The translations under genes were made by a program, and so were the position numbers. From contig OZ220703.1 of NCBI GenBank assembly GCA_965116535.1, positions 2,385,464 through 2,449,463 on the forward strand: a stretch of DNA of 64,000 nt. Reading direction: 5' to 3'. The notes under the pieces are model-generated. The model searched no databases, was not told where the DNA came from, and was given only the letters and a program-made list of their open reading frames with translations. Numbering within the stretch: the stretch's first letter is position 1; every line of letters starts with the position of its first letter. This DNA is from Acidimicrobiales bacterium. Lineage in GTDB: Bacteria > Actinomycetota > Acidimicrobiia > Acidimicrobiales > Bin134. Shown one piece after another: positions 44,966-55,816 of the stretch.

Positions 44966-47284
44966 TTATTCTAGGGCCATGCCGATTTCGCGGAGTTCGG
45001 CGAGGCGGACTTCTTCGGTGTCGGGGGCGGGGGGGCCGGGGACGTAGGTCACCTGGTGGATGATGCCGGTGTAGGGGAAGGAGCCGTGGCGCTGGTGGAG
45101 CTGCCATGACACTGGTGATCGGCGGTCCACGCCCACGTCGATGCCCTCCCAGGGGATGAAGCCGTAGATCTGGGGGACGTCTGCGGCGGTGATGCCGGTT
45201 TGGCCGTCGGCGCTCACGTTGATGTTCCAGATGCGACCGCCGGGGGCTTGTACGTCCAGAACGATCTGTTGGCACTCCCCCGGCAGCGCCATGGGGTCGA
45301 ACACCATGGGCTGGCCGCCGCTGTTCACCTCGAAGTGCAGGGCGCCGTCTTCGATGTACAGCACATAGCCCGACGCCTGTCCGCCGTGGGCCACCAGCAC
45401 GCCCTGGTCGCCCGGTTGGTGGTGCAGATCGACGGTGACGGTGAAATTGCCACCCGAAATGACCCGGGAGGCCCGGTAGCGCTCCACGGTGGGGGTGCCG
45501 GGCAGGAGCCGCAGCTCTCGGGTGAGCAGCTCGTGCTCGGCCGGTCGGAGCAGGCGGTACAGCCCGGTGCCCTCGTCGAGGGGAAAGACCCGGTTGCGCC
45601 AGGCGGCCTCCTCCCAGGCTTCCACCAACTCGGCCAGCTTCTCAGGCTCGGCCTCGGCCAGGTCGTTCCGCTCGTTGATGTCCTCGGCCAGGTTGAACAG
45701 CTCCCAGCGGTCGGTGCTGAACGGGGTCATAAACTCGTGGAACGCAGCCGCCCCCCAGCCGTCGCGGTAGTAGGCCCGGTGGCCGATGCACTCGTAGTAC
45801 TGCTCGGTGCGGTCGGAAGGGGCATTGGGGTCGTCCAACGTGGCGGCGAACGACACCCCGTCGGGAGCCTCGGAGGCCAGCCCGTGGCGCTGGGTGGGAA
45901 TGTCCAGGTCCAAGAACTCGGCCAGAGTGGGCAGCAGGTCGATGATGTGGGCGTACTGGTGGCGCAGCTCACCGCCGACGGCTGCGGTGCGGGCCGGCCA
46001 CGACAGCACGAACGGCACCGAGTGGCCGCCCCGATAAGAGGTGATCTTGTAGAGCCGGAAGGGGGTATTGCAGGCCATGGCCCAACCCCGGGGGTAGTGG
46101 GGCCAGGTGGTGGGTCCGCCGATGGCGTCGAGGGCGTCCATCTCCTCGTCGCCCACCGCGGCCGACGACATCGCTCCCGGGTTGCTGTAGGTGAAATACG
46201 AGATGGTTCCCTGGGCCCGGCCCTCGCGGGACGCCCCGTTGTCGCTGGTGAACACGAAGATGGTGTTGTCGAGCTGGCCGATGGCATCGAGTTCGGAGCG
46301 AATGCGGGCCACGCTGTCGTCGATGGACTCGACCATGGCGGCGTACACCTCCATGTAGCGGGCCATGACCCGGCGCTCGCCCTCTGGGTAGCTGTCCCAG
46401 GCGGCCACGTCCTCGTCGGGCTCGAAGTTTCGGGGCGGGAGCTCGGTGCCCGGCGGCACCACCCCCAGCTCGATCTGGCGGGCCAAGCGCTCCTCGCGGA
46501 GCTGGTCCCAGCCCTTGTCGTAGTTGCCCCGGTGGCGGGCGATGTCGTCGGCCTTGGCGTGCAGCGGGGCGTGGACGGCCCCGTGGGCGTAGTACAAGAA
46601 GAACGGCTTGTCGGGGTCGGTGGCCTTCACCTCCCGGATCATGCGGCAGGCCCGGTCGGTGAGGTCGTCGGTGAGGTAGTAGCCCTCGGGATACTCGGCG
46701 ATGTCGATGGGGCTGTTCCCCTCGTACATCAAATGGGGGTGGTGGAAGTTGGTGAGGGCCTCCATGAACCCATAGAACTGGTCGAAGCCCCGCTGGAGGG
46801 GCCACGAGTGGTTGTCGCCGGCGATGGAGAGGTCGGTCTCCTTGCACAAGTGCCACTTGCCCACCGCCATGGTGGCGTAGCCGCTGCCCTTGAGCATCTC
46901 GGCCAGCGTGCTCTGGTTGTGGGGCAGCTCACTGGCGTAGCCGGGGAAGCCGGGGTCGGCGTTGGCCACAAACCCCACGCCTACGTGATGAGAGTTGAGC
47001 CCGGTCAACAGCGCGGCCCGGGTGGGCGAGCACAGCGGGGTGACGTGGAAGTTGGTGTAGCGGACCCCGGTGGCGGCCAGCTCGTCGATGGCCGGGGTGG
47101 CGATCTCCGAGCCGTAGCAGCTCACGTCGGAGTAGCCCAGATCGTCGGCCAGCACCACCACGATGTTGGGGGCGCCGGCTGGCGGGGTCGGGCGGGGTGG
47201 CCACCATGACTCGGAGGTGGCCATGATCTTGCCTACCGTGCCCTCAAACCCGGGATAGTGCTCCTGCTGGCGCTGATCGGTCAT
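44966..47284 (-). CDS. arylsulfatase with C-terminal LamG-like domain, paralog of the 42415..44739 gene
   Basis: The ATG at 47284 is preceded by GGGAGGA. It has the same N-terminus [13 protein letters not shown], the [11 protein letters not shown] motif and a similar C-terminus (...REIGMALE). Confidence 0.85.
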
Positions 47285-47314
47285 GAATCCTCCCAGTGAT
47301 CCGCCGACACAATA

Positions 47315-47336
47315 CGGCACTTGCTACGAGGTGCCG
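47315..47336 (-). terminator. hairpin cggcac-n10-gtgccg downstream of the amidohydrolase gene
   Basis: 6-bp stem followed on the minus strand by UAUUGUGU, 23 nt after the stop at 47359. Confidence 0.35.
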
Positions 47337-47358
47337 CTCTTCCTCGAAGGGGTGGAGC

Positions 47359-48744
47359 TCAGGCCGGCTGGTAGTCCTCGAGGATCGTGCCCTTGAAGAA
47401 GCCGGGGTCGGCACCGGTGCAGAGCCGCACTGCGTTGTCGCACATGAAGGCCCGGAACTGGTCCTCGTCGAGCCAACCGTTTTCTACCTGCTCATAAGCC
47501 TCAGGCATCACGTCGACCATGTTGGCGACATCCCAGTGGGCGATGTCGGAGCTGAAGACGGCGTTCAGGGGGACGCCCCCCGGCAACTCAGGGTCGAAGG
47601 CCAGCCGGGTAAGGGGGTCGTCGGCCTCGCACCCGAACCAACAGGTGGAGGAGATCTGGCGGATCACATCGTCGGGACCAGTGATGCCGGCAGCCTCGAA
47701 GTCGTTCACCACATCGGGAGTACGGAAGAAGTCGGCGAACTGGGCGCCGAATCCAGGCTCGGGATTGAGCCGCCCGGCATGCTCGGCCAGTAGCTGGTCG
47801 AAGCGGTCGGGTTCGAAGGCGTCGGGGTCGTAGGCGGGCAGACCCTCAGGGCCGCGCTTGTGGTAGTGGCCGATCATGTCGTGAACCAACTGCACCGCCC
47901 AGGTTGTGCCCCCTTCCAAGAAGTTGAGCCGCAGGTCGGGGAATCGGTGGAGCACGCCGCCGAACAGGAGCGACTTAAGGGTGGTCTCGCTGGCCCCGGC
48001 GAAATTGCCCATGTGGTTGTAGGAGAAGTTGGTTATGGAGCGCCGTCCGCTCCATCCCATCGACCCGGAGTGGAAACCAGCCACAACGCCCAGCTCCACC
48101 AGCCGCTGCCACAGCGGGTCGTAGTCGTAGGCGCTGTCGAGGCCCAGCGAGTCGATCCAGGTGCCCCCGCCGTCGAGCTCTCGCACTGCGAAGCCGCCCA
48201 GCATCACCACCTTGAAGCCCAAGTCGACCACGGCGTGGTCCAACTCGTCCACCGCCTCTTGGGGGGTTGTAGTGGGAATGGTGGCCACCGGTACCAGCCG
48301 GTCGCCGAAGCCTTCGTACACGTCGGCGGTGTAGCGGTTCCAGGCCCGGCACAGCCCCCGGCGGATCTCGTCGTTGCGCTGGCTGGGAACCACCAGCCCC
48401 CACGTCGGGTAGCAGACGGCCAGGTCCAAGCCCAGCTCGTCGAGTCGGCGATACATGAGCGATGGTGCCATGGCCGCAGCCAGATCGTCGGTGTTGGCGA
48501 ATGGCACGCCCCACCACGTCTGGCGGAAAGGCCGCACTCGGGGGCGGTCTTGGGGGGCCACTCCAGCCCAGTGGGGGCTTCCGTCGAAGGTCCCTGTGGC
48601 CCACAGCGCATTCAACCCTTCGCTGATGCCCTCGTCTCGCACATAGCGGTCGAGGTCGGGCCAGTGCTCCCAGTAGTGGCCGTCGCTGTCCACCACTGGG
48701 TGGTCGATCCGCTCCCTGACATCGCTGGGTGACATCTCGCTCAT
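47359..48744 (-). CDS. amidohydrolase-2 family metal-dependent hydrolase
   Basis: 461 aa with N-terminal HPVVDSDGHYWE and a TIM-barrel amidohydrolase pattern. Confidence 0.7.
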   Translation of the reverse strand: MSEMSPSDVRERIDHPVVDSDGHYWEHWPDLDRYVRDEGISEGLNALWATGTFDGSPHWAGVAPQDRPRVRPFRQTWWGVPFANTDDLAAAMAPSLMYRRLDELGLDLAVCYPTWGLVVPSQRNDEIRRGLCRAWNRYTADVYEGFGDRLVPVATIPTTTPQEAVDELDHAVVDLGFKVVMLGGFAVRELDGGGTWIDSLGLDSAYDYDPLWQRLVELGVVAGFHSGSMGWSGRRSITNFSYNHMGNFAGASETTLKSLLFGGVLHRFPDLRLNFLEGGTTWAVQLVHDMIGHYHKRGPEGLPAYDPDAFEPDRFDQLLAEHAGRLNPEPGFGAQFADFFRTPDVVNDFEAAGITGPDDVIRQISSTCWFGCEADDPLTRLAFDPELPGGVPLNAVFSSDIAHWDVANMVDVMPEAYEQVENGWLDEDQFRAFMCDNAVRLCTGADPGFFKGTILEDYQPA

Positions 48745-48800
48745 GGGCTGAGGCTAGTGATATGGCCGTAGGGTGTGCCGGTGATGAGAGGGGAAGCGAC

Positions 48801-49811
48801 ATGAGCGGTGAGCGAAACCGGCGGTGGATATTGCGGGCTCGCCCGCAGGGCGACATCACCGCTGACGACCTGGAGTTGACCGAGCTGGCTGTGCCCGAGC
48901 CGGGTGAGGGCGAGCTGCTGGTGCGGAACACCTTTCTGTCGATGGACCCCACCCACCGGATCTGGATGAGCGACATCGACGCCTACATGCCCCCCATCGA
49001 GGTGGGTGACCCCATGCGGGGTCGGGCGTGGGGCACGGTGATCGAGTCTCGTCATCCGGAGTTCCAGCTCGGCGATGTGGTCACCGGCGGGCATATCTGG
49101 GAGGAGTACACAGTGCTGGACCGGGCCGAGCGCATCCCCATGGAACTGGGGCTGCCGCTGGTGGCGTTCACCAGCGTTCTCGGCCCCACCGGCATGACCG
49201 CCTACTGGAGCTTGCTCGACATCGGCGAGCCCCGCCCGGGCGACACCCTGGTGGTGTCGGCGGCGGCCGGGGCCACCGGCTCGGTGGCGGGCCAGATCGG
49301 CAAGATCGTGGGCTGCCGGGTGGTGGGAGTGGCCGGTGGGCCGGAGAAGTGCCGGTTTGTGACCGAGGAATTGGGCTTCGACGCCTGCGTGGACCATCGG
49401 GCCGGCAATCTGGACGAGCAGTTCCGGGCGGCGTGTCCCGACGGCATCGACGTGGACTTCGAGAACGTGGGCGGCGAGGTGATGGATGCCGTTCTGGGCC
49501 AGGTGAACAACCACGCCCGGGTGGTGTTGTGCGGGCTGATCTCCACCTACAACGCGGAGGGCGACTGGTGGTCGCCTCGTTTGTTCCGCAATATCTTGTT
49601 CCGGCGCTTGAAGGTGCAGGGCGTGATCATCACCGACTACTTCCACCGCTTCGGCGAGGCGCTCCCCATCCTGGCCCAGTGGGTACGCGACGGTCGCATC
49701 CGCTACCGGGTGGACGTGGTGGACGGTATCGAGAATGTCCCCCAGGCGTTGGCTCGGCTCTTCGAGGGCCGAAACATCGGCAAGCAGCTTGTGAAAGTCT
49801 CAGCCGACTAG
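48801..49811 (+). CDS. NADP-dependent medium-chain oxidoreductase (YncB / alkenal reductase-like)
   Basis: ATG at 48801 with LLVRNTFLSMDPTHRIWM and the Rossmann motif VSAAAGATGSVAGQIGK. Confidence 0.8.
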   Translation: MSGERNRRWILRARPQGDITADDLELTELAVPEPGEGELLVRNTFLSMDPTHRIWMSDIDAYMPPIEVGDPMRGRAWGTVIESRHPEFQLGDVVTGGHIWEEYTVLDRAERIPMELGLPLVAFTSVLGPTGMTAYWSLLDIGEPRPGDTLVVSAAAGATGSVAGQIGKIVGCRVVGVAGGPEKCRFVTEELGFDACVDHRAGNLDEQFRAACPDGIDVDFENVGGEVMDAVLGQVNNHARVVLCGLISTYNAEGDWWSPRLFRNILFRRLKVQGVIITDYFHRFGEALPILAQWVRDGRIRYRVDVVDGIENVPQALARLFEGRNIGKQLVKVSAD

Positions 49812-49812
49812 C

Positions 49813-50286
49813 GTGCCAGCCATGACTCCTGAGGACTTGGTTGAGATTGAGGCCATTCGCCAGCTCAAGGCCCGGTATTTCCGGTTGATGGACCAAAAGC
49901 GCTGGGACGAGTGGGAAGACGTATTCTGCGACGACGTGGTGATCTCCACTCCCGACGACACCGGGGAAGACTCCGACATCACCGGCAACAAGGCCTTCCG
50001 GGTGTACTTGGAGCCCATCTTGGCCCCGATCATCACCACCCACCACGGCCACATGAGCGAGATCAGCATCGACGGGCCCGACACCGCGTCGGGGGTGTGG
50101 TCGATGGAGGATCATCTCGACTGGCCGCCGGAGAGCGGTGTGGGGCAGATGTGGGGTACTGGGTGGTACGAGGAGACTTATCGCAAGGGTGATGATGGGC
50201 AGTGGCGGATTGCCACGTTGCGGTTGCGGAGGCAGCGGATTCAGGTAGAGGGGAATCGGGTTTTTCCGGTCGAGCGGCCCGGGTAG
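49813..50286 (+). CDS. SnoaL-like / NTF2-fold protein
   Basis: 157 aa with EIEAIRQLKARYFRLMDQKRWDEWEDVF, typical of SnoaL_4. Confidence 0.65.
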   Translation: MPAMTPEDLVEIEAIRQLKARYFRLMDQKRWDEWEDVFCDDVVISTPDDTGEDSDITGNKAFRVYLEPILAPIITTHHGHMSEISIDGPDTASGVWSMEDHLDWPPESGVGQMWGTGWYEETYRKGDDGQWRIATLRLRRQRIQVEGNRVFPVERPG

Positions 50287-50291
50287 TTGGT

Positions 50292-50410
50292 TCCACCGGC
50301 GGGGTGGCGGGTCTGTCTGTACCATCCACCGGGGTCGGCGGGTCCTGTCACCGGAAGCGGCCTAGCCGTCGGTGCGGCCAGGTCCGCCACCGGTGCCACC
50401 CCCCGACCCC
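50292..50410. repeat. REP-like element, diverged copy
   Basis: It contains ccaccggcggggtggcgggtctgtc, ccatccaccggggtcggcgggtcctgtc and a terminal gccaccccccgacccc around a GC-rich hairpin (caccgg...ccggtg). Confidence 0.6.
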
Positions 50411-51060
50411 TACGGTTGGGGGACCACCACCAGGACTACCCCCTCGTACACAGAGAGTTGAGGAGAGGGGTTGGTGGCGCGGTTGCTGATGCCGCGCGAG
50501 GTAAGGGGATCGAGGAGTTCGTTGTTGAGCGGCCAGGCGAGGCCGGTGGTGGTTACTCGGGCGGGGCCGCCCAGGGCGAATAGGGAGACGGTGGCGCCGG
50601 GTTCTACGGTCAGTTTTCGATTGTGGTGAACCACTACTGCTTGGGCGTTGCCCAGCCAGGCTTCGATTTCTATGCCGGACCATTGGGGGGAGGCGAGGAT
50701 GGCTAGGTTGCCAAATAGGTGGTCTAGGCGGCCGCCGGCGGCGCCGATGACGATGACCCGGTCGGCTAGGCGGGCGGCTAGCTCAAGGGCGAGTTCCAGG
50801 TCGGTCTGGTCTTTGTCGGCGGGGTGGCGCTCGATGCGGGTGCCGGACTGCTCGGCGGCGGCCAGGGCTTCGGGAGTCACCGAGTCCATGTCGCCTACTG
50901 CTACGGCCACGGCCAGTCCGGCGGCATGGGCATGATCTAGTCCGGCGTCGGCGGCTACTACTACTGGGTCGGCGGGGAGGCGGGCGATCTCTTCGGGGGT
51001 GGGGGGGTCGCCGCCGGCTACGACGACCACGGTGACCGCTGCCGACTCGGACTCGGGCAT
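50410..51060 (-). CDS. thiamine pyrophosphokinase
   Basis: This is the C-terminal 216 aa of the 496-aa track ORF. It carries GDMDS and ADKDQTDLELAL motifs. The ATG at 51060 forms an ATGA overlap with the upstream stop. Confidence 0.7.
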   Translation of the reverse strand: MPESESAAVTVVVVAGGDPPTPEEIARLPADPVVVAADAGLDHAHAAGLAVAVAVGDMDSVTPEALAAAEQSGTRIERHPADKDQTDLELALELAARLADRVIVIGAAGGRLDHLFGNLAILASPQWSGIEIEAWLGNAQAVVVHHNRKLTVEPGATVSLFALGGPARVTTTGLAWPLNNELLDPLTSRGISNRATNPSPQLSVYEGVVLVVVPQP

Positions 51061-52106
51061 CAGAACGGGCGGGTGATGGCTCGGGTGGGGCCGAAGTTGT
51101 GGAGGCCGCCGGCGTGGAGGTTGCCCAGGCCTCCGGCGCACATCACGATCACGTCGGAGGGGTGCTCCACGATGTAGGCGGTGCCGTCGGGGCTGATCCG
51201 GTCGCGCTCGCCCAGCCAATTCTTGTGAGTCTCGGGGAACTGGTCGACTTGGTGGCAGGCGTTTTGCCACAGGGCATCTTGCACGTCTTCGATGGTGGGG
51301 TAGGCGGCAGCCAGCATGTCGGCCCAGGGCGGGGGCACCACCACCATGACCTCGGCGCCCCAATGGGAGATGTAGGCGTTGGTGCCCACATAGGCCAGCG
51401 ACTGGCCGATGACCCAGGCCAGCGATTGGCCGTCGTCGGCGGCGATGTCGGCGATGTCCATGGTGCCGATGGTGCCGTAGACGGTGACCGCATCGCCGCT
51501 CACCCCCCGGCGCTCGGCCAGCGGCGGCCACGGGGAACGCTCCTCCCACTCCCCCATCACCAGGCCCACCACCCGGGCCGGTTGGCCCAACACGCACTTG
51601 GAGGTCTCCCCGGCCACCTGGCCGCCCACGTTGCGCATGACCAGCCGGATGGCCCGACCGATAGCCGGTCCACCCCCGGCTGCACCGCCGAAGCAGCCGG
51701 CCTGGTAGGGCAGATCCAGCCGGTCTCGGGCCGGACCGTTCACAAACAGGCAGGGCACCACCGAGCTGGTGGTGGTGTTGAGGGCAAACAGGTCGAACGG
51801 TCGCTCGGCCATGGCCTCCAGTGCGCCCATCATCAGCGGCATGGCCTCGGGGGCGGCCCCGGCCATGCAGGCGTTGACGGCCAGCTTCTCCACCGTGCAC
51901 CAGGCGTTGGCCGGCGGAACCTCCAACAGCACTGAGTCGGCGGGGCGGTCAGCGGCAGCAATGAATCGGGCCACCCGCTCGGGGGTGGGCGGGATCAAGG
52001 GCAGGCCGTCACCCCAGCCCCTATCGGTGGCCCAGGCCATGAACTCGGCCGGGTCGTCGGGGGCCTCGACCTGCCCATCGGGAATGGTGCCGCCGTCAGA
52101 GGCCAT
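51060..52106 (-). CDS. uncharacterised conserved protein (348 aa)
   Basis: Clean ORF with no family I can name (WGDGLPLIPPTPERV..., NTTTSSVVPCLFVNGP). It is coupled to both flanking genes through TAG|ATG and ATGA junctions. Confidence 0.6.
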   Translation of the reverse strand: MASDGGTIPDGQVEAPDDPAEFMAWATDRGWGDGLPLIPPTPERVARFIAAADRPADSVLLEVPPANAWCTVEKLAVNACMAGAAPEAMPLMMGALEAMAERPFDLFALNTTTSSVVPCLFVNGPARDRLDLPYQAGCFGGAAGGGPAIGRAIRLVMRNVGGQVAGETSKCVLGQPARVVGLVMGEWEERSPWPPLAERRGVSGDAVTVYGTIGTMDIADIAADDGQSLAWVIGQSLAYVGTNAYISHWGAEVMVVVPPPWADMLAAAYPTIEDVQDALWQNACHQVDQFPETHKNWLGERDRISPDGTAYIVEHPSDVIVMCAGGLGNLHAGGLHNFGPTRAITRPF

Positions 52107-52640
52107 CTACGAGGGCACTCCCAGTGAATCCAACAGCGGCTGCCAGAAGTCGTGAGCGATCTTGCGCACTTCCGGTTCGGGACGGGTGTCCAGCGGATAG
52201 GGCAGCACGCACAGCCGCAGGCCGGGCCGCTCCATGTTGCGGGCCATGATCTCGGCCAACGGCACGAACTCCTCGGTTACGACGGCGACCGCCGTCTTGC
52301 CCTGGGCCGCCACTGCAACTGCGTCGTGGACGGTCCAGGACGTGCAGCTGCCTCAATTGCCCAAGCCGACGATGGCGATATCCACGTCGGTGGCGAAGCT
52401 GTCCAGCTCCTCCAGCACCGCGTCCTCAAGCTTGACGTCTTGGCGGGACTCCGAGCACCACGGCACCACCTCGGCCCCGGCCGCCTCCAGCTTGCGGGTC
52501 CACTCATCGGTGGTCCACAAGAATGAGCGCCAGGTGAGGTCGTAGCGGATGCCCACCCGCTTGCCGGTCAGCGGACCGGCATCGGGACCCTGATCCGGGT
52601 CCACCGCCGGCGGAGCAGCCGTCGGATCCAATACCAACAT
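52107..52640 (-). CDS. UGSC-motif selenoprotein (in-frame UGA at 52355-52353 read as Sec)
   Basis: Track ORFs 52353..52640 and 52107..52313 are in the same frame, separated by one TGA. The joined 177-codon product reads ...DIAIVGLGN-U-GSCTSWTVHDAVAVAAQGKTAVAVV.... Confidence 0.7.
52319..52347 (-). promoter_or_regulatory. candidate bacterial SECIS stem-loop
   Basis: The RNA CUGCACGUCCUGGACCGUCCACGACGCAG starts after a 5-nt spacer following the UGA. It forms roughly 11 bp (CUG/CAG, CGUC/GACG, UGGA/UCCA) with a small apical loop. This was folded by hand only. Confidence 0.4.
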
Positions 52641-52687: not shown

Positions 52688-53497
52688 CTAGTGGCCGGTG
52701 AAATCGGGGGGGCGGCCCTCTTGGCGGGACGCGGCCCACTCCCGGAAGTCAGCCGAGCGGGACGACAGCTCCATGGCAAACGCCTCTTCGCTCAAGTGGG
52801 CTTCCAGGCTGCGTTCTCGGCCCCGCTGGACAAGAGTCTTGGTCAGCCCGACGGCCACGGTGGCCGATGAGGCCAACCGACCGACCAAAGCGGCTACCTC
52901 GGCATCAACGCGGTTTGGGGGCACAGTCCGATAGATGAGACCCCATTCGGCTGCCTCTGCTCCGGAAATCTCTTCCCCCAGCATCAACATGCCCTTGGCT
53001 CGGGCCACACCAGCCAGCCGAGGCAGAAGCCAGGATGTTCCGCTGTCGGGGGTGATACCCATGGCGGTGAACGGCGCTCGCAGGCGGGCGTCGTCAGCGG
53101 CTACTGCGAAGTCCGAGGCCAGCACCAGGCTGAGGCCCAGGCCCACCGCCCATCCCCGCACCGCGCACACGATGGGCACCTGCACCTCCAGCATCACCGG
53201 GATGAGCCGGTTCACCAGATAGGGCATGCGCCGGGAGATGCTGCCCGGCCGGGGCCGGTTTCCGTCGCCAGCTCGACCGGCCAAGTCGAAGCCGCTGCAA
53301 AAGTTGTCGCCGTTGGCGTTGAGCAAGACCGCCCTGATCTCCTCGTCGGCGCTGGCCGCTTCCAGAGTGTCGATCAGGGCCAACACGATGTCGTCGGTCA
53401 GGGCATTGCGGCGCTGGGGTCGGTCAAGGGTGAGGGTCAAAACCGGCGGCGCCGAGACCACTTGCAGCCCTTCGGGCGGCGTCGGATAGGGCTTCAT
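52688..53497 (-). CDS. enoyl-CoA hydratase/isomerase (crotonase) family protein
   Basis: 269 aa with LTLDRPQRRNAL...FCSGFDL.... Confidence 0.85.
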   Translation of the reverse strand: MKPYPTPPEGLQVVSAPPVLTLTLDRPQRRNALTDDIVLALIDTLEAASADEEIRAVLLNANGDNFCSGFDLAGRAGDGNRPRPGSISRRMPYLVNRLIPVMLEVQVPIVCAVRGWAVGLGLSLVLASDFAVAADDARLRAPFTAMGITPDSGTSWLLPRLAGVARAKGMLMLGEEISGAEAAEWGLIYRTVPPNRVDAEVAALVGRLASSATVAVGLTKTLVQRGRERSLEAHLSEEAFAMELSSRSADFREWAASRQEGRPPDFTGH

Positions 53498-53519: not shown

Positions 53520-54308
53520 TCAGCTAGGTACAAGATCGGCGGCCCCGAATATAACCGAGAACCTCACGCACCAGATCACCACCGTGGAGTAGAGGTCGAG
53601 GTCGAGATCGCGGGGGATCTCGTAGTTCTGCGACCCGACGTTCCCCTTCAGATCGCCAAGGTCGACATACACGTCGGTGAACTGGCCAACGGGGGCGTCG
53701 GGGGGCGCCGCGCTCAGATAGACGTTCAAGTCGGGGCCGTTGTCAGTCCTGAAGTCCTCGAACCTCAGGAATCGCTGGCCAGTGCCGTCGCCGAGCACCT
53801 CAACCGTTCCGCGGGTGGGGTGGCTTCGGCTGATGAACTCGCCGGTTGCCTCCACCCTTACTTCGGGCATCGGAGGCATCGTCTCCTCGACCGGTTGCTC
53901 CTCGGGCATGCCCAGTTCTTCCATCGCCTCGTCCATCTTGGCGATGAGCTCCTCCGACAACTCGTCGCCCGGCATGGGGCCTGTGGCCAGCGCGGGGGCG
54001 GCAGTACCGGAGTCGGGTGCCGAAGCTGCCGCCTCCGCTTCCGGGGTACCGGGGTCGCCCTCGGCGGATTCGGGGTCGACTGGTTCGTCAGCCGGGGTGC
54101 CAGCCACCGCGCCGCTGTCGAACACCGGGCCAGCCTCTTCAACCTTGTCGTCTATGAAGTAGGTCTGGAAGGCGAACCAGAAGAACACCAACCAGATCAA
54201 CACACCCAGTAGGGCGGCCAACACCACGGCGAGGAGCACCTTGGCTCGGATCGACAGTGCCTTCAACCAACCCCACAAGCGGGATATCAACCGTTTCATA
54301 CCCCTCAA
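53520..54308 (-). CDS. membrane-anchored DM13 domain protein
   Basis: 262 aa with an N-terminal TM, an acidic/proline linker and a C-terminal GEFISRSHPTRGTVEVLGDG...FRTDNGPDLNVYLS (DM13 pattern). Confidence 0.6.
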   Translation of the reverse strand: MRGMKRLISRLWGWLKALSIRAKVLLAVVLAALLGVLIWLVFFWFAFQTYFIDDKVEEAGPVFDSGAVAGTPADEPVDPESAEGDPGTPEAEAAASAPDSGTAAPALATGPMPGDELSEELIAKMDEAMEELGMPEEQPVEETMPPMPEVRVEATGEFISRSHPTRGTVEVLGDGTGQRFLRFEDFRTDNGPDLNVYLSAAPPDAPVGQFTDVYVDLGDLKGNVGSQNYEIPRDLDLDLYSTVVIWCVRFSVIFGAADLVPS

Positions 54309-55220: not shown

Positions 55221-55574
55221 TCAGTAGCGCTCGAAGCGGGCGTTGAGCTTTGACATGTCGTCGTGGTCAGTGGTGAGGATGAATGTGCCCAAACCCTCTG
55301 CGACCACAGTGAGGTGGGCGTCAACCACGTCAGAAGTGCGGGATTCGCCGAGTCTGAGTCCCACGCTCACTGACTCGTCGAGGGAGTGGATCTCGAAGTA
55401 GCGCAGGGCGCGAGACAAGTTTGCCTGTCTTGCCGGCTCACGCCAGACCTGGGCTAGCACGGGATGGGTTGTGTGCAGGTCATCGCCGCGCTCGGCAGCC
55501 CGCTTGATCAGAGCCCACAATCGGGAGTTGAGATTCTCGCTGTCGAGGATCAGCGGGCCAGCATCAACGATCAA
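55221..55574 (-). CDS. vapC: PIN-domain toxin VapC
   Basis: The TTG start at 55574 overlaps the antitoxin TGA (TTGA). The product reads (M)IVDAGPLI...DAHLTVVAEGLG..ILTTDHDDM. Confidence 0.65.
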   Translation of the reverse strand: MIVDAGPLILDSENLNSRLWALIKRAAERGDDLHTTHPVLAQVWREPARQANLSRALRYFEIHSLDESVSVGLRLGESRTSDVVDAHLTVVAEGLGTFILTTDHDDMSKLNARFERY

Positions 55575-55816
55575 CGATTCACGCCCTGGCGGTCGAGTAC
55601 GGCATCGGCCCACTGGAGATGCTCAGGGCTGATGGGGCCCTCCTCCGCCTCCCACGAAGCGATCAAATCGAGCATTGCGTGGCTGCGGCGGCGGCGCTTT
55701 ACTTCAGCGAGCAAAGACCGCTTGATGGCCAACGTCTTGGTGCCGTCCATGGCCACCAGTTCGGCAAGAGCCGCCTCCATCTCATCATCGAAGTTGATAG
55801 TTGTCTTGAGAGCCAT
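55571..55816 (-). CDS. vapB: VapB-type antitoxin
   Basis: 81 aa starting MALKTTINFDDEMEAAL, as in VapB-family antitoxins. Confidence 0.65.
   Translation of the reverse strand: MALKTTINFDDEMEAALAELVAMDGTKTLAIKRSLLAEVKRRRRSHAMLDLIASWEAEEGPISPEHLQWADAVLDRQGVNR

Follow-up and report, generated by a model that had tools for sequence, protein, structure and literature searches.

A UGSC selenoprotein gene and its unnamed 348-aa partner as a conserved two-gene module, joined in one lineage by a thiamine diphosphokinase gene

Among described systems, the glycine and D-proline reductases offer an analogy to the locus analysed here. These enzymes combine a U-x-x-C selenoprotein, GrdB or PrdB, with a larger subunit that handles the substrate, the pyruvoyl proprotein GrdE or PrdA, and the two are coupled genetically. 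The likeness is one of logic only; the pair of proteins described below gave no match to PF07355 or PF09338, and no grd or prd genes are located near the pair. For the UGSC selenoproteins themselves, a 'UGSC/Unknown_1' fusion was mentioned in passing in 2008 (PMC2398784, Figure S1A), and UGSC function is still given as unknown in reviews of 2022 and 2026. In searches of 1.8–5.8 billion proteins, nearly all multi-domain UGSC proteins are fused to the family of the 348-aa protein considered here, a distribution which suggests that 'Unknown_1' is probably this same family. The passing mention of 2008 does not extend to the finding that the genes, where unfused, are almost always neighbours, nor to fusions in the reverse order, the family size or the genomic contexts.

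We have followed up an earlier note on a 64,000-nt stretch of an Acidimicrobiales bacterium genome (assembly GCA_965116535.1, contig OZ220703.1; the window), in which a UGSC selenoprotein, an unassigned 348-aa protein and a thiamine pyrophosphokinase were described as a tightly coupled operon. The UGSC/348-aa pair in the window is a member of a known, uncharacterised module, and no homologue of known function was found for either protein.

Gene packing and selenocysteine recoding in the window

The three genes lie tightly packed on the minus strand, as had been described, with the UGSC-family selenoprotein gene at 52107..52640 (177 codons plus a TAG stop), the gene for the 348-aa partner protein at 51060..52106 and a thiamine diphosphokinase gene encoding 216 aa at 50410..51060. 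The UGSC stop TAG (52109-52107) directly precedes the partner ATG at 52106, in agreement with the original description. At the second junction, the reported overlap of the partner TGA with the kinase ATG at 51060 is also present, although not in the reported form, ATGA; the sequence reads TTC-TGA-TGC, the stop TGA (51062-51060) and the start ATG (51060-51058) sharing a single base (TGATG). In their packing, the selenoprotein, 348-aa and kinase genes resemble a single unit with coupled translation. On the same strand, an enoyl-CoA hydratase/isomerase-family gene (52688..53497; PF00378, E 1.6e-43) is located 47 nt upstream of the UGSC gene and may be transcribed together with it. Upstream of the hydratase gene in turn, at a distance of 22 nt, lies a gene for a DM13-domain protein (53520..54308, minus strand; PF10517, E 1.2e-23), whose product carries an N-terminal hydrophobic stretch. 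Downstream of the kinase, the unit is ended by a convergent SnoaL-like gene on the plus strand (49813..50286; PF13577, E 1.5e-25).

The identification of the first gene as a UGSC selenoprotein was borne out by family match and in-frame TGA. With cysteine substituted for selenocysteine, the protein matches the Pfam family PF24696 'UGSC' at 106.7 bits (E 1.8e-30, cut-off 25) and does so nearly end to end, residues 3-173 corresponding to model positions 2-170 of 172. The match to NCBIfam NF041046, at 68.9 bits, is below the equivalog cut-off of 125 and restricted to model positions 45-145, the protein covering only the C-terminal two-thirds of the model. By this partial, sub-cut-off match, the window's UGSC falls in another branch of the family.

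The redox motif, Sec96-Gly-Ser-Cys99, is contained within GLGN-U-GSC-TS at codons 92-101, in the context IVGLGN-U-GSCTSW, and codon 96 is an in-frame TGA (52353..52355, minus strand) that would be translated as selenocysteine. Across loci the site is kept as TGA or TGY: of 83 genome loci with homologues, 75 have an in-frame TGA at the Sec position and 7 have cysteine there, the cysteine forms occurring in Nocardia, Halieaceae and Sphingobium. In metagenomes, the TGA pattern corresponds to a UGSC gene in 117 of 120 stretches matching a G-L-G-N-U-G-S-C-T nucleotide pattern. On the evidence of the sequences, the UGSC gene is a selenoprotein gene in which TGA is recoded to selenocysteine. A candidate bacterial SECIS hairpin is located within the coding sequence at 52291..52348 (minus strand), ∼5 nt past the UGA (a 4-nt gap), with a minimum free energy of -31 kcal/mol and z = -1.78 relative to shuffled sequences. 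Comparable hairpins are predicted at the same site in diverse UGSC homologues with differing stem sequences, and RNAalifold analysis of covariation on an ungapped alignment gave no consensus structure. tRNA genes were not found within the 64-kb window.

UGSC and the 348-aa protein across genomes

UGSC and the 348-aa protein are near-obligate neighbours in both directions. When loci were located via the 348-aa protein, 83 of 84 had UGSC as the immediate upstream neighbour, in the same orientation, and these spanned Acidimicrobiia, Myxococcota, Spirochaetaceae, Nocardia, Halieaceae and Sphingobium. In an independent, reverse test via the Sec motif, a 348-family ORF follows 76 of the 80 UGSC genes on metagenome stretches with at least 700 nt downstream, the partner being missing downstream in about 5% of UGSC genes (L148, L158, L181 and L193). 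The 348-aa family is large: it has >2,000 homologues, forms no fewer than 4,855 clusters when grouped at 50% identity, and is found in at least 576 GTDB species.

Fusion of the two proteins is observed in both orders. Full-length cysteine-type fusions carry UGSC followed by the 348-domain (P0151, P0188, P0202, P0226 and P0245), many gene calls of 410-450 aa begin just past the Sec codon, and the order is reversed in P0180 and P0197. The AlphaFold2 model of the fused protein P0188 (549 residues with a disordered linker) has a pLDDT of 89.2 and a pTM of 0.88, scores which we take to imply a defined packing between the modelled UGSC and 348 domains. A fold search with the fused model returned only generic flavodoxin-like, Rossmann-like and FtsZ matches. 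AlphaFold modelling of a fused homologue predicts a flavodoxin-like alpha/beta domain for UGSC, in contrast to the thioredoxin-like fold guessed in 2008. As judged from gene order and fusion, the conserved unit is the UGSC/348-aa pair only, widespread and often fused.

That unrelated genes merely happen to lie together, without any function in common, would be compatible with the scan of the unit for promoters and terminators, in which no signal was assignable, and with the lineage-specific adjacency of the kinase. As an explanation of the whole locus it is scarcely credible, however, as it is ruled out for the UGSC/348-aa pair by the counts of 83/84 and 76/80 across phyla and by the fusions in both orders. 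Incidental juxtaposition is thus refuted for the pair and is the default reading for the kinase.

Lineage restriction of the thiamine diphosphokinase gene

The third gene had been called a thiamine pyrophosphokinase, an identification which stands. Its product matches the thiamine diphosphokinase model TIGR01378 at 146.6 bits (cut-off 76.4), carries the catalytic and B1-binding Pfam domains (PF04263, E 3.2e-25, and PF04265, E 1e-9) and contains the GDMDS and DKDQTD motifs. It is a clear and ordinary member of TIGR01378 (ThiN/TPK), only its coupling to the pair being lineage-specific. The kinase gene is downstream of the pair in 21 of 22 Ca. Poriferisocius-like loci, a clade of a sponge-associated lineage delimited by 348-aa proteins at least 86% identical, and the 22nd locus (L023) ends within the 348-aa gene. 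The full order of UGSC, 348-aa and kinase genes is present in 20 clade loci, each from the genome of a different GTDB species; in L081 the sequence is cut within the 348-aa gene, before the UGSC gene, and the kinase is still downstream. With this recurrence, the layout seen in the window is not due to chance. The enoyl-CoA hydratase-family cluster is likewise present in 21 loci of the window's clade, and the SnoaL-like gene is convergent downstream in 21 clade loci. The SnoaL gene was considered as an ancestral downstream neighbour of the pair and rejected, as its orthologues are confined to the clade.

Beyond the clade, the more distant loci, about 58 in number, all lack the kinase beside the pair. 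In the metagenome loci it is found beside the pair on one contig only, which is of the same clade. Conservation of the three-gene adjacency, when checked as gene neighbourhood across genomes, held among close relatives only. Other thiamine genes do not recur near the pair.

The three genes could serve a single pathway: the selenoprotein and the 348-aa protein would process a compound related to thiamine, for example through reduction of an oxidised or disulfide form, and the kinase would activate the product. The abutting and overlapping stop and start codons, which fit translational coupling, and the three-gene order kept in the 20 clade loci and L081 are consistent with such a pathway. We consider it very improbable, however, as the confinement of the kinase to Ca. 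Poriferisocius-like loci, and its absence from all of the distant and the non-clade metagenome loci, leaves the pathway unsupported; in addition, no further thiamine gene recurs beside the pair, and neither the spread of the pair over at least 576 species nor its fusions depend on the kinase. On this distribution, the thiamine kinase is a passenger, a lineage-specific insertion at the end of the unit in Ca. Poriferisocius-like Acidimicrobiia, and the link to thiamine metabolism arises by accident from the local gene order; the kinase would be co-expressed through translational coupling and take no part in the chemistry of the module. The link from selenoprotein through the 348-aa protein to the kinase, to which the earlier note had drawn attention, is upheld in its UGSC/348-aa part by two-way adjacency and fusion, whereas its thiamine-activation part falls with the clade-only kinase. 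For the window itself, the outcome is mostly deflationary.

The partner family and the possible chemistry of the pair

The motifs WGDGLPLIPPTPERV, NTTTSSVVPCLFVNGP and GGAAGGGPAIGR were confirmed in the 348-aa protein, and its placement outside any curated family withstood each of the searches. Neither Pfam nor NCBIfam has a model that the protein matches at E <= 0.1, and when 40 diverse family members were scanned at E <= 10, UGSC, on the fused part, was the sole recurring family. PDB sequence and profile searches gave no real match, and a Foldseek search of the PDB with the AlphaFold2 model of the 348-aa protein (pLDDT 83.5, pTM 0.87) gave no convincing fold match, TM-scores being below 0.3.

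The conservation of the 348-domain is enzyme-like. In both subfamilies it reaches 90% or more at residues D33, N78, T112, T113, R151, R154, N159, E186 and W193; H331 never varies within the window's subfamily, and its conservation in the other is 87%. The family lacks a universal cysteine. Cys138 is present in 99% of the window's subfamily and in 56% of the fused subfamily, in which Val (21%) and Ala (16%) are also found. A pyruvoyl proprotein of the GrdE/PrdA type was considered for the 348-aa protein and rejected, as Cys138, the cleavage candidate, is not universal, a third of the fused subfamily having Val or Ala in its place. Cysteine is abundant in most proteins of the window's subfamily (positions 7, 70, 93, 115, 138, 212 and 324), and the window's own protein has lost most of these residues. 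An Fe-S enzyme was rejected for the family generally, on the lack of a universal cysteine and on this loss.

The best of the weak PDB folds are those of class I fumarate hydratase, at E about 1e-3 and a probability of at most 0.84, and of barbiturase/cyanuric acid hydrolase. The substrates of these enzymes are small carboxylates or rings, and the Foldseek alignment spans nearly the whole 348-aa model, with TM-scores of 0.20-0.29 and rmsd of 13-17 Å. Such folds would fit a non-redox carboxylate enzyme, a hydro-lyase, isomerase or hydrolase, to which UGSC is an accessory with a regulatory, protective or structural role. Consistent with this, some fusions lacking the Sec/Cys motif retain the conserved residues of the 348-domain, and the universal residues of that domain are polar or charged and include no Cys. 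We nevertheless regard a non-redox enzyme as unlikely. The TM-scores reach 0.24-0.29 only, hhalign comparison with E. coli FumA gives a probability of 0.1, and the three cluster-binding cysteines of class I fumarase are without a universal counterpart in the 348-family. Moreover, Sec is kept in about 90% of loci (75/83 genome loci), which would be costly for a non-catalytic residue. Identity of the 348-aa protein with class I fumarase itself was rejected on the hhalign result and the absence of a conserved Cys triad.

In Nocardia and some Acidimicrobiia, the cysteine-type UGSC adds an N-terminal NifU/Nfu-like domain with C-A-x-C, and the G-x-C-G-S-C sequence resembles the C-x-x-C loop of Nfu. 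These features, and the abundance of cysteine in most 348 proteins of the window's subfamily, could reflect a role of the pair in sulfur, selenium or iron-sulfur trafficking, in which UGSC would be the carrier or scaffold, with the 348-aa protein as its acceptor or donor. Such a role appears quite improbable, as the NifU match reaches 18 bits against a Pfam cut-off of 27 and occurs in few lineages only, the window's 348-aa protein has lost most of the cysteines concerned, and the neighbours of the pair are catabolic enzymes, with no Fe-S or selenium-metabolism genes among them.

We regard the chances as evenly balanced that UGSC and the 348-aa protein form a two-subunit selenol/thiol enzyme, with the kinase outside its chemistry. 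In such an enzyme, which would be a single polypeptide in many organisms, the 348-aa protein would be the substrate-binding, catalytic body, and the small UGSC subunit, of flavodoxin-like fold, would supply a Sec-x-x-Cys centre at a helix N-terminus. This centre would attack or reduce the bound substrate and end as a selenenylsulfide, to be re-reduced by a thioredoxin-type system; by analogy with the glycine and proline reductases, an end state re-reduced by a thiol system is expected for UGSC. The conserved residues and the gene context suggest that the substrate is probably a carboxylate, which would be a small anionic metabolite of organic-acid or sugar-acid catabolism. We infer, on this scheme, a physical complex, redox catalysis, a carboxylate substrate and thioredoxin-type recycling. 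The redox motif is lost in some full-length fusions (SGVY in P0226, CGTS in P0305 and CGGS in P0313), and redox chemistry therefore cannot be common to the whole family; among 10 proteins, loss of the UGSC motif was not tied to loss of partner Cys84 or Cys183. In a single protein, read on two contigs, the 348-domain is fused to a thioredoxin-reductase-like flavoprotein with CAVC and is encoded beside a Sec-UGSC gene; no thioredoxin-reductase-like gene recurs in the other loci.

A more specific proposal, doubtful at present and put forward tentatively, is that the pair represents a previously unrecognised class of two-subunit selenoenzyme, with a body fold that has no solved relative, performing a selenol-dependent and probably reductive carboxylate transformation. 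If true, this new class would explain the ranking of UGSC among the most abundant selenoproteins of aquatic metagenomes. The near-constant presence of one unnamed partner would change UGSC from a 'small redox protein' to 'one subunit of a specific enzyme', and the handles gained are the conserved residues, the gene contexts and the culturable cysteine versions, the last of which, in cultured Nocardia, Sphingobium and Haliea, would make the chemistry directly testable.

The gene context of the pair is predominantly catabolic. An SMP-30/gluconolactonase-like gene is divergent upstream of the pair in 38 of 104 loci, and downstream a D-2-hydroxyacid dehydrogenase (26/81) or a Gfo/Idh/MocA oxidoreductase (12/81) is observed, with CoA-transferase III, acyl-CoA ligase, hydratase and dehydrogenase genes also near the pair. 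The commonest neighbour reaches at most about 37% of loci, and much of the recurrence may represent shared synteny within Acidimicrobiia. Betaproteobacterial modules are located among genes for TctC/Bug binding proteins, MmgE/PrpD and HpcH, TctC being near the pair in three betaproteobacterial loci only.

Organization and conservation of the UGSC/348-aa pair

The UGSC, 348-aa and thiamine diphosphokinase genes follow one another in the same orientation on the minus strand of the window, and both the three-gene layout and the gene identities proposed in the earlier note are borne out by coordinates and by Pfam and NCBIfam matches. The UGSC gene (52640-52107, minus strand) carries an in-frame TGA as codon 96 (52355-52353) within IVGLGN-U-GSCTSW. 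Its product, searched with the Sec replaced by Cys, matches Pfam PF24696 'UGSC' along its entire length (106.7 bits, E 1.8e-30), and it scores 68.9 bits against NCBIfam NF041046, below the equivalog cut-off of 125, which places it in a branch of the family other than that modelled by NCBI. A hairpin is predicted ~5 nt past the UGSC UGA (4-nt gap; -31 kcal/mol, z = -1.78), and no tRNA gene is present in the 64-kb window. The UGSC stop TAG (52109-52107) abuts the ATG at 52106 of the 348-aa ORF (52106-51060, minus strand), whose TGA (51062-51060) has one base in common with the kinase ATG (51060-51058, minus strand), this junction reading TGATG rather than the ATGA previously described. The 216-aa kinase matches TIGR01378 (146.6 bits, cut-off 76.4) and both Pfam TPK domains.

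Adjacency of the first two genes was assessed in two independent directions. Six-frame translations of 84 loci found via the 348-aa protein, with TGA read through, were searched with a UGSC profile, and a UGSC ORF was observed immediately upstream of the 348-aa gene on the same strand in 83, the sole exception being a contig that ends inside the 348-aa gene; the motif codon was TGA in 75 and Cys in 7. Conversely, metagenome contigs were scanned with a degenerate nucleotide pattern for G-L-G-N-U-G-S-C-T, and 117 of the 120 matching stretches proved to be UGSC genes. Where at least 700 nt of downstream sequence was available, a 348-family ORF followed immediately in 76 of 80 stretches, the other four UGSC genes being followed by dehydrogenase-type or unrelated genes.

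The kinase behaves differently. It is immediately downstream of the 348-aa gene in 21 loci, each from a different species representative and all from the Ca. Poriferisocius-like clade, with 348-aa proteins at least 86% identical to that of the window, whereas at about 58 more distant loci the kinase was never found in this position; the sole metagenome contig that carries it is a member of the same clade. Three-gene adjacency is thus not conserved beyond close relatives. Elsewhere, among the 81 loci with enough downstream sequence, the next gene is a D-isomer 2-hydroxyacid dehydrogenase in 26 and a Gfo/Idh/MocA oxidoreductase in 12, and no recurring thiamine gene was found near the pair. The conserved unit is therefore the UGSC/348-aa pair, not the trio, and the kinase is a lineage-specific passenger, for which the codon overlap makes co-expression with the pair likely within the clade. 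The earlier interpretation was half right: the coupling of selenoprotein and 348-aa protein is real and strong, in both directions of search and in fusions, while the proposed thiamine pathway link is local only and without support.

Fusions of the two proteins

About one quarter of the best 150 representatives of the 348-family carry an N-terminal extension, consisting of either a whole Cys-type UGSC domain or the UGSC portion after the Sec codon, the latter being selenoprotein fusions cut by the gene caller. The same architecture is found in most of the best 120 homologues of one such UGSC/348-domain fusion, P0188. Two reverse-order fusions, P0180 and P0197, place the 348-domain ahead of the N-terminal half of UGSC; their gene calls reach position 92 of the UGSC model (172 positions) and stop there, a little short of the expected place of the Sec/Cys motif, so both were probably cut at an in-frame TGA. 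Zhang & Gladyshev (2008; PMC2398784) mentioned a 'UGSC/Unknown_1 fusion', in which 'Unknown_1' is very probably the 348-aa family, and later reviews still list UGSC function as unknown.

Additional domains are also joined to the module. The 695-aa protein P0256 (L205:5226-7313; same gene at L206:1053-3140), a single protein read on two contigs and encoded directly after a Sec-type UGSC gene, combines a 348-domain with a C-terminal thioredoxin-reductase-like flavoprotein (Pyr_redox_2, E 6e-41; CAVC motif), a single case which suggests a possible electron source for the module. In Nocardia and some Acidimicrobiia, Cys-type UGSC genes (L074:5085-5951, L076:5106-5972, L077:5189-6001, L084:5149-7020) encode a further ~95-aa domain at the N-terminus, which has a C-A-x-C motif and weakly resembles NifU/Nfu (Pfam NifU 18 bits against a cut-off of 27); at L084 a single ORF comprises this domain, UGSC and the 348-domain.

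Fold and distribution of the 348-aa family

The window protein shares 93-95% identity with its counterparts in Ca. Poriferisocius and related Acidimicrobiales MAGs. A collection of 5.8 billion proteins yielded more than 2,000 homologues, every one annotated 'hypothetical', and searching 1.84 billion cluster representatives with a profile returned 4,855 at E <= 1e-3, 960 of them at E <= 1e-30. A relative is encoded in at least 576 GTDB species genomes, with hosts including Acidimicrobiia, other Actinomycetota, Myxococcota, Spirochaetaceae, Nocardia, Halieaceae and Sphingobium. Neither Pfam-A nor NCBIfam has a model that matched the protein at E <= 0.1, PDB sequences gave no real match by single sequence or profile, and among 40 diverse relatives at E <= 10 the sole recurring Pfam family was UGSC, on the fused part. 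AlphaFold2 modelled the protein with confidence (pLDDT 83.5, pTM 0.87), and Foldseek against PDB yielded no convincing solved relative, the top matches being class I fumarate hydratases (E about 1e-3, TM 0.24-0.29), with barbiturase and cyanuric acid hydrolase ranking next. A relationship to class I fumarases was rejected, as the family aligned with E. coli FumA at an hhalign probability of 0.1.

A fused homologue of 549 residues is modelled as one confident body (pLDDT 89.2, pTM 0.88) in which the linker alone is disordered, which we take as support for a predicted, defined interface between UGSC and the 348-domain. In this model UGSC appears as an alpha/beta domain with five strands, similar to flavodoxin-like and Rossmann-like folds, with lumazine synthase, RpiB and a flavodoxin domain among the matches, a predicted fold different from the thioredoxin-like one guessed in 2008. 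The U-G-S-C motif is located between a strand and the next helix, and a profile search aligned it with the P-loop position of ArsA-type ATPases.

Possible function and genomic context

A redox centre that forms a selenenylsulfide typically has Sec three residues ahead of Cys at the N-terminus of a helix. In the 348-domain, Asp33, Asn78, Thr112, Thr113, Arg151, Arg154, Asn159, Glu186 and Trp193, together with structural Gly and Pro, are at least 90% conserved in both subfamilies; His331 shows no variation in the window's subfamily and is conserved at 87% in the other. There is no Cys common to all members of both subfamilies; Cys84 and Cys183 mark the mostly fused one and Cys138 that of the window. 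In the window protein and its clade the N-terminal CGPxGC segment is missing, as are most of the Cys residues conserved elsewhere in their subfamily (positions 7, 93, 115, 212, 324). Conservation of this kind resembles that of an enzyme pocket binding a small anionic ligand rather than that of a metal-cluster site.

Gene context points to organic-acid or sugar-acid catabolism. The commonest gene just upstream of the pair is a divergent SMP-30/gluconolactonase-like gene (38/104), and other recurrent neighbours encode lactonase, hydroxyacid and sugar dehydrogenases, xylose-isomerase-like TIM barrel proteins, CoA-transferase III and acyl-CoA enzymes. In Betaproteobacteria the module is found amid TctC/Bug binding-protein arrays, MmgE/PrpD and HpcH; of two such contigs (L207:4502-13232; L209:498-10233), one holds three UGSC + 348-domain modules with a TctC/Bug gene beside each, and in the other a fused selenoprotein module is surrounded by six TctC genes, MmgE/PrpD and HpcH/HpaI.

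Fold, conserved residues and gene context favour a reading in which the pair would form a selenol/thiol-dependent enzyme of two subunits with a carboxylate metabolite as its substrate, and we give this reading about an even chance. The main rival, a non-redox 348-aa enzyme with UGSC as an accessory subunit, draws support from the full-length fusions P0226 (GWSGVYTIW), P0305 (GDCGTSTSM) and P0313 (GDCGGSTSW), in which the redox motif is degenerate and the conserved 348-domain residues are retained; these may be non-redox paralogues. The window locus is an ordinary member of a widespread module, noticed before and never characterised, and the significance lies in the class rather than in this locus: the 348-aa protein is the obligate partner of an abundant selenoprotein, has no solved fold relative, and is now testable in culturable hosts with Cys forms.

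Around the trio, an enoyl-CoA hydratase-family gene (minus strand) lies 47 nt upstream of the UGSC gene, and 22 nt further upstream is a gene for a DM13 ('electron transfer') protein with a hydrophobic N-terminal stretch (53520-54308, minus strand), which may share a transcription unit with UGSC. Two small ORFs of 81 and 130 aa at 55221-55816 (minus strand) overlap by 43 nt in a toxin-antitoxin-like layout, neither with a Pfam match at E <= 0.001. A convergent SnoaL-like gene lies downstream of the kinase, and genes for a 784-aa sulfatase, an Amidohydro_2 protein and a zinc-type NADP oxidoreductase (44966-49811) flank the trio as a catabolic neighbourhood.
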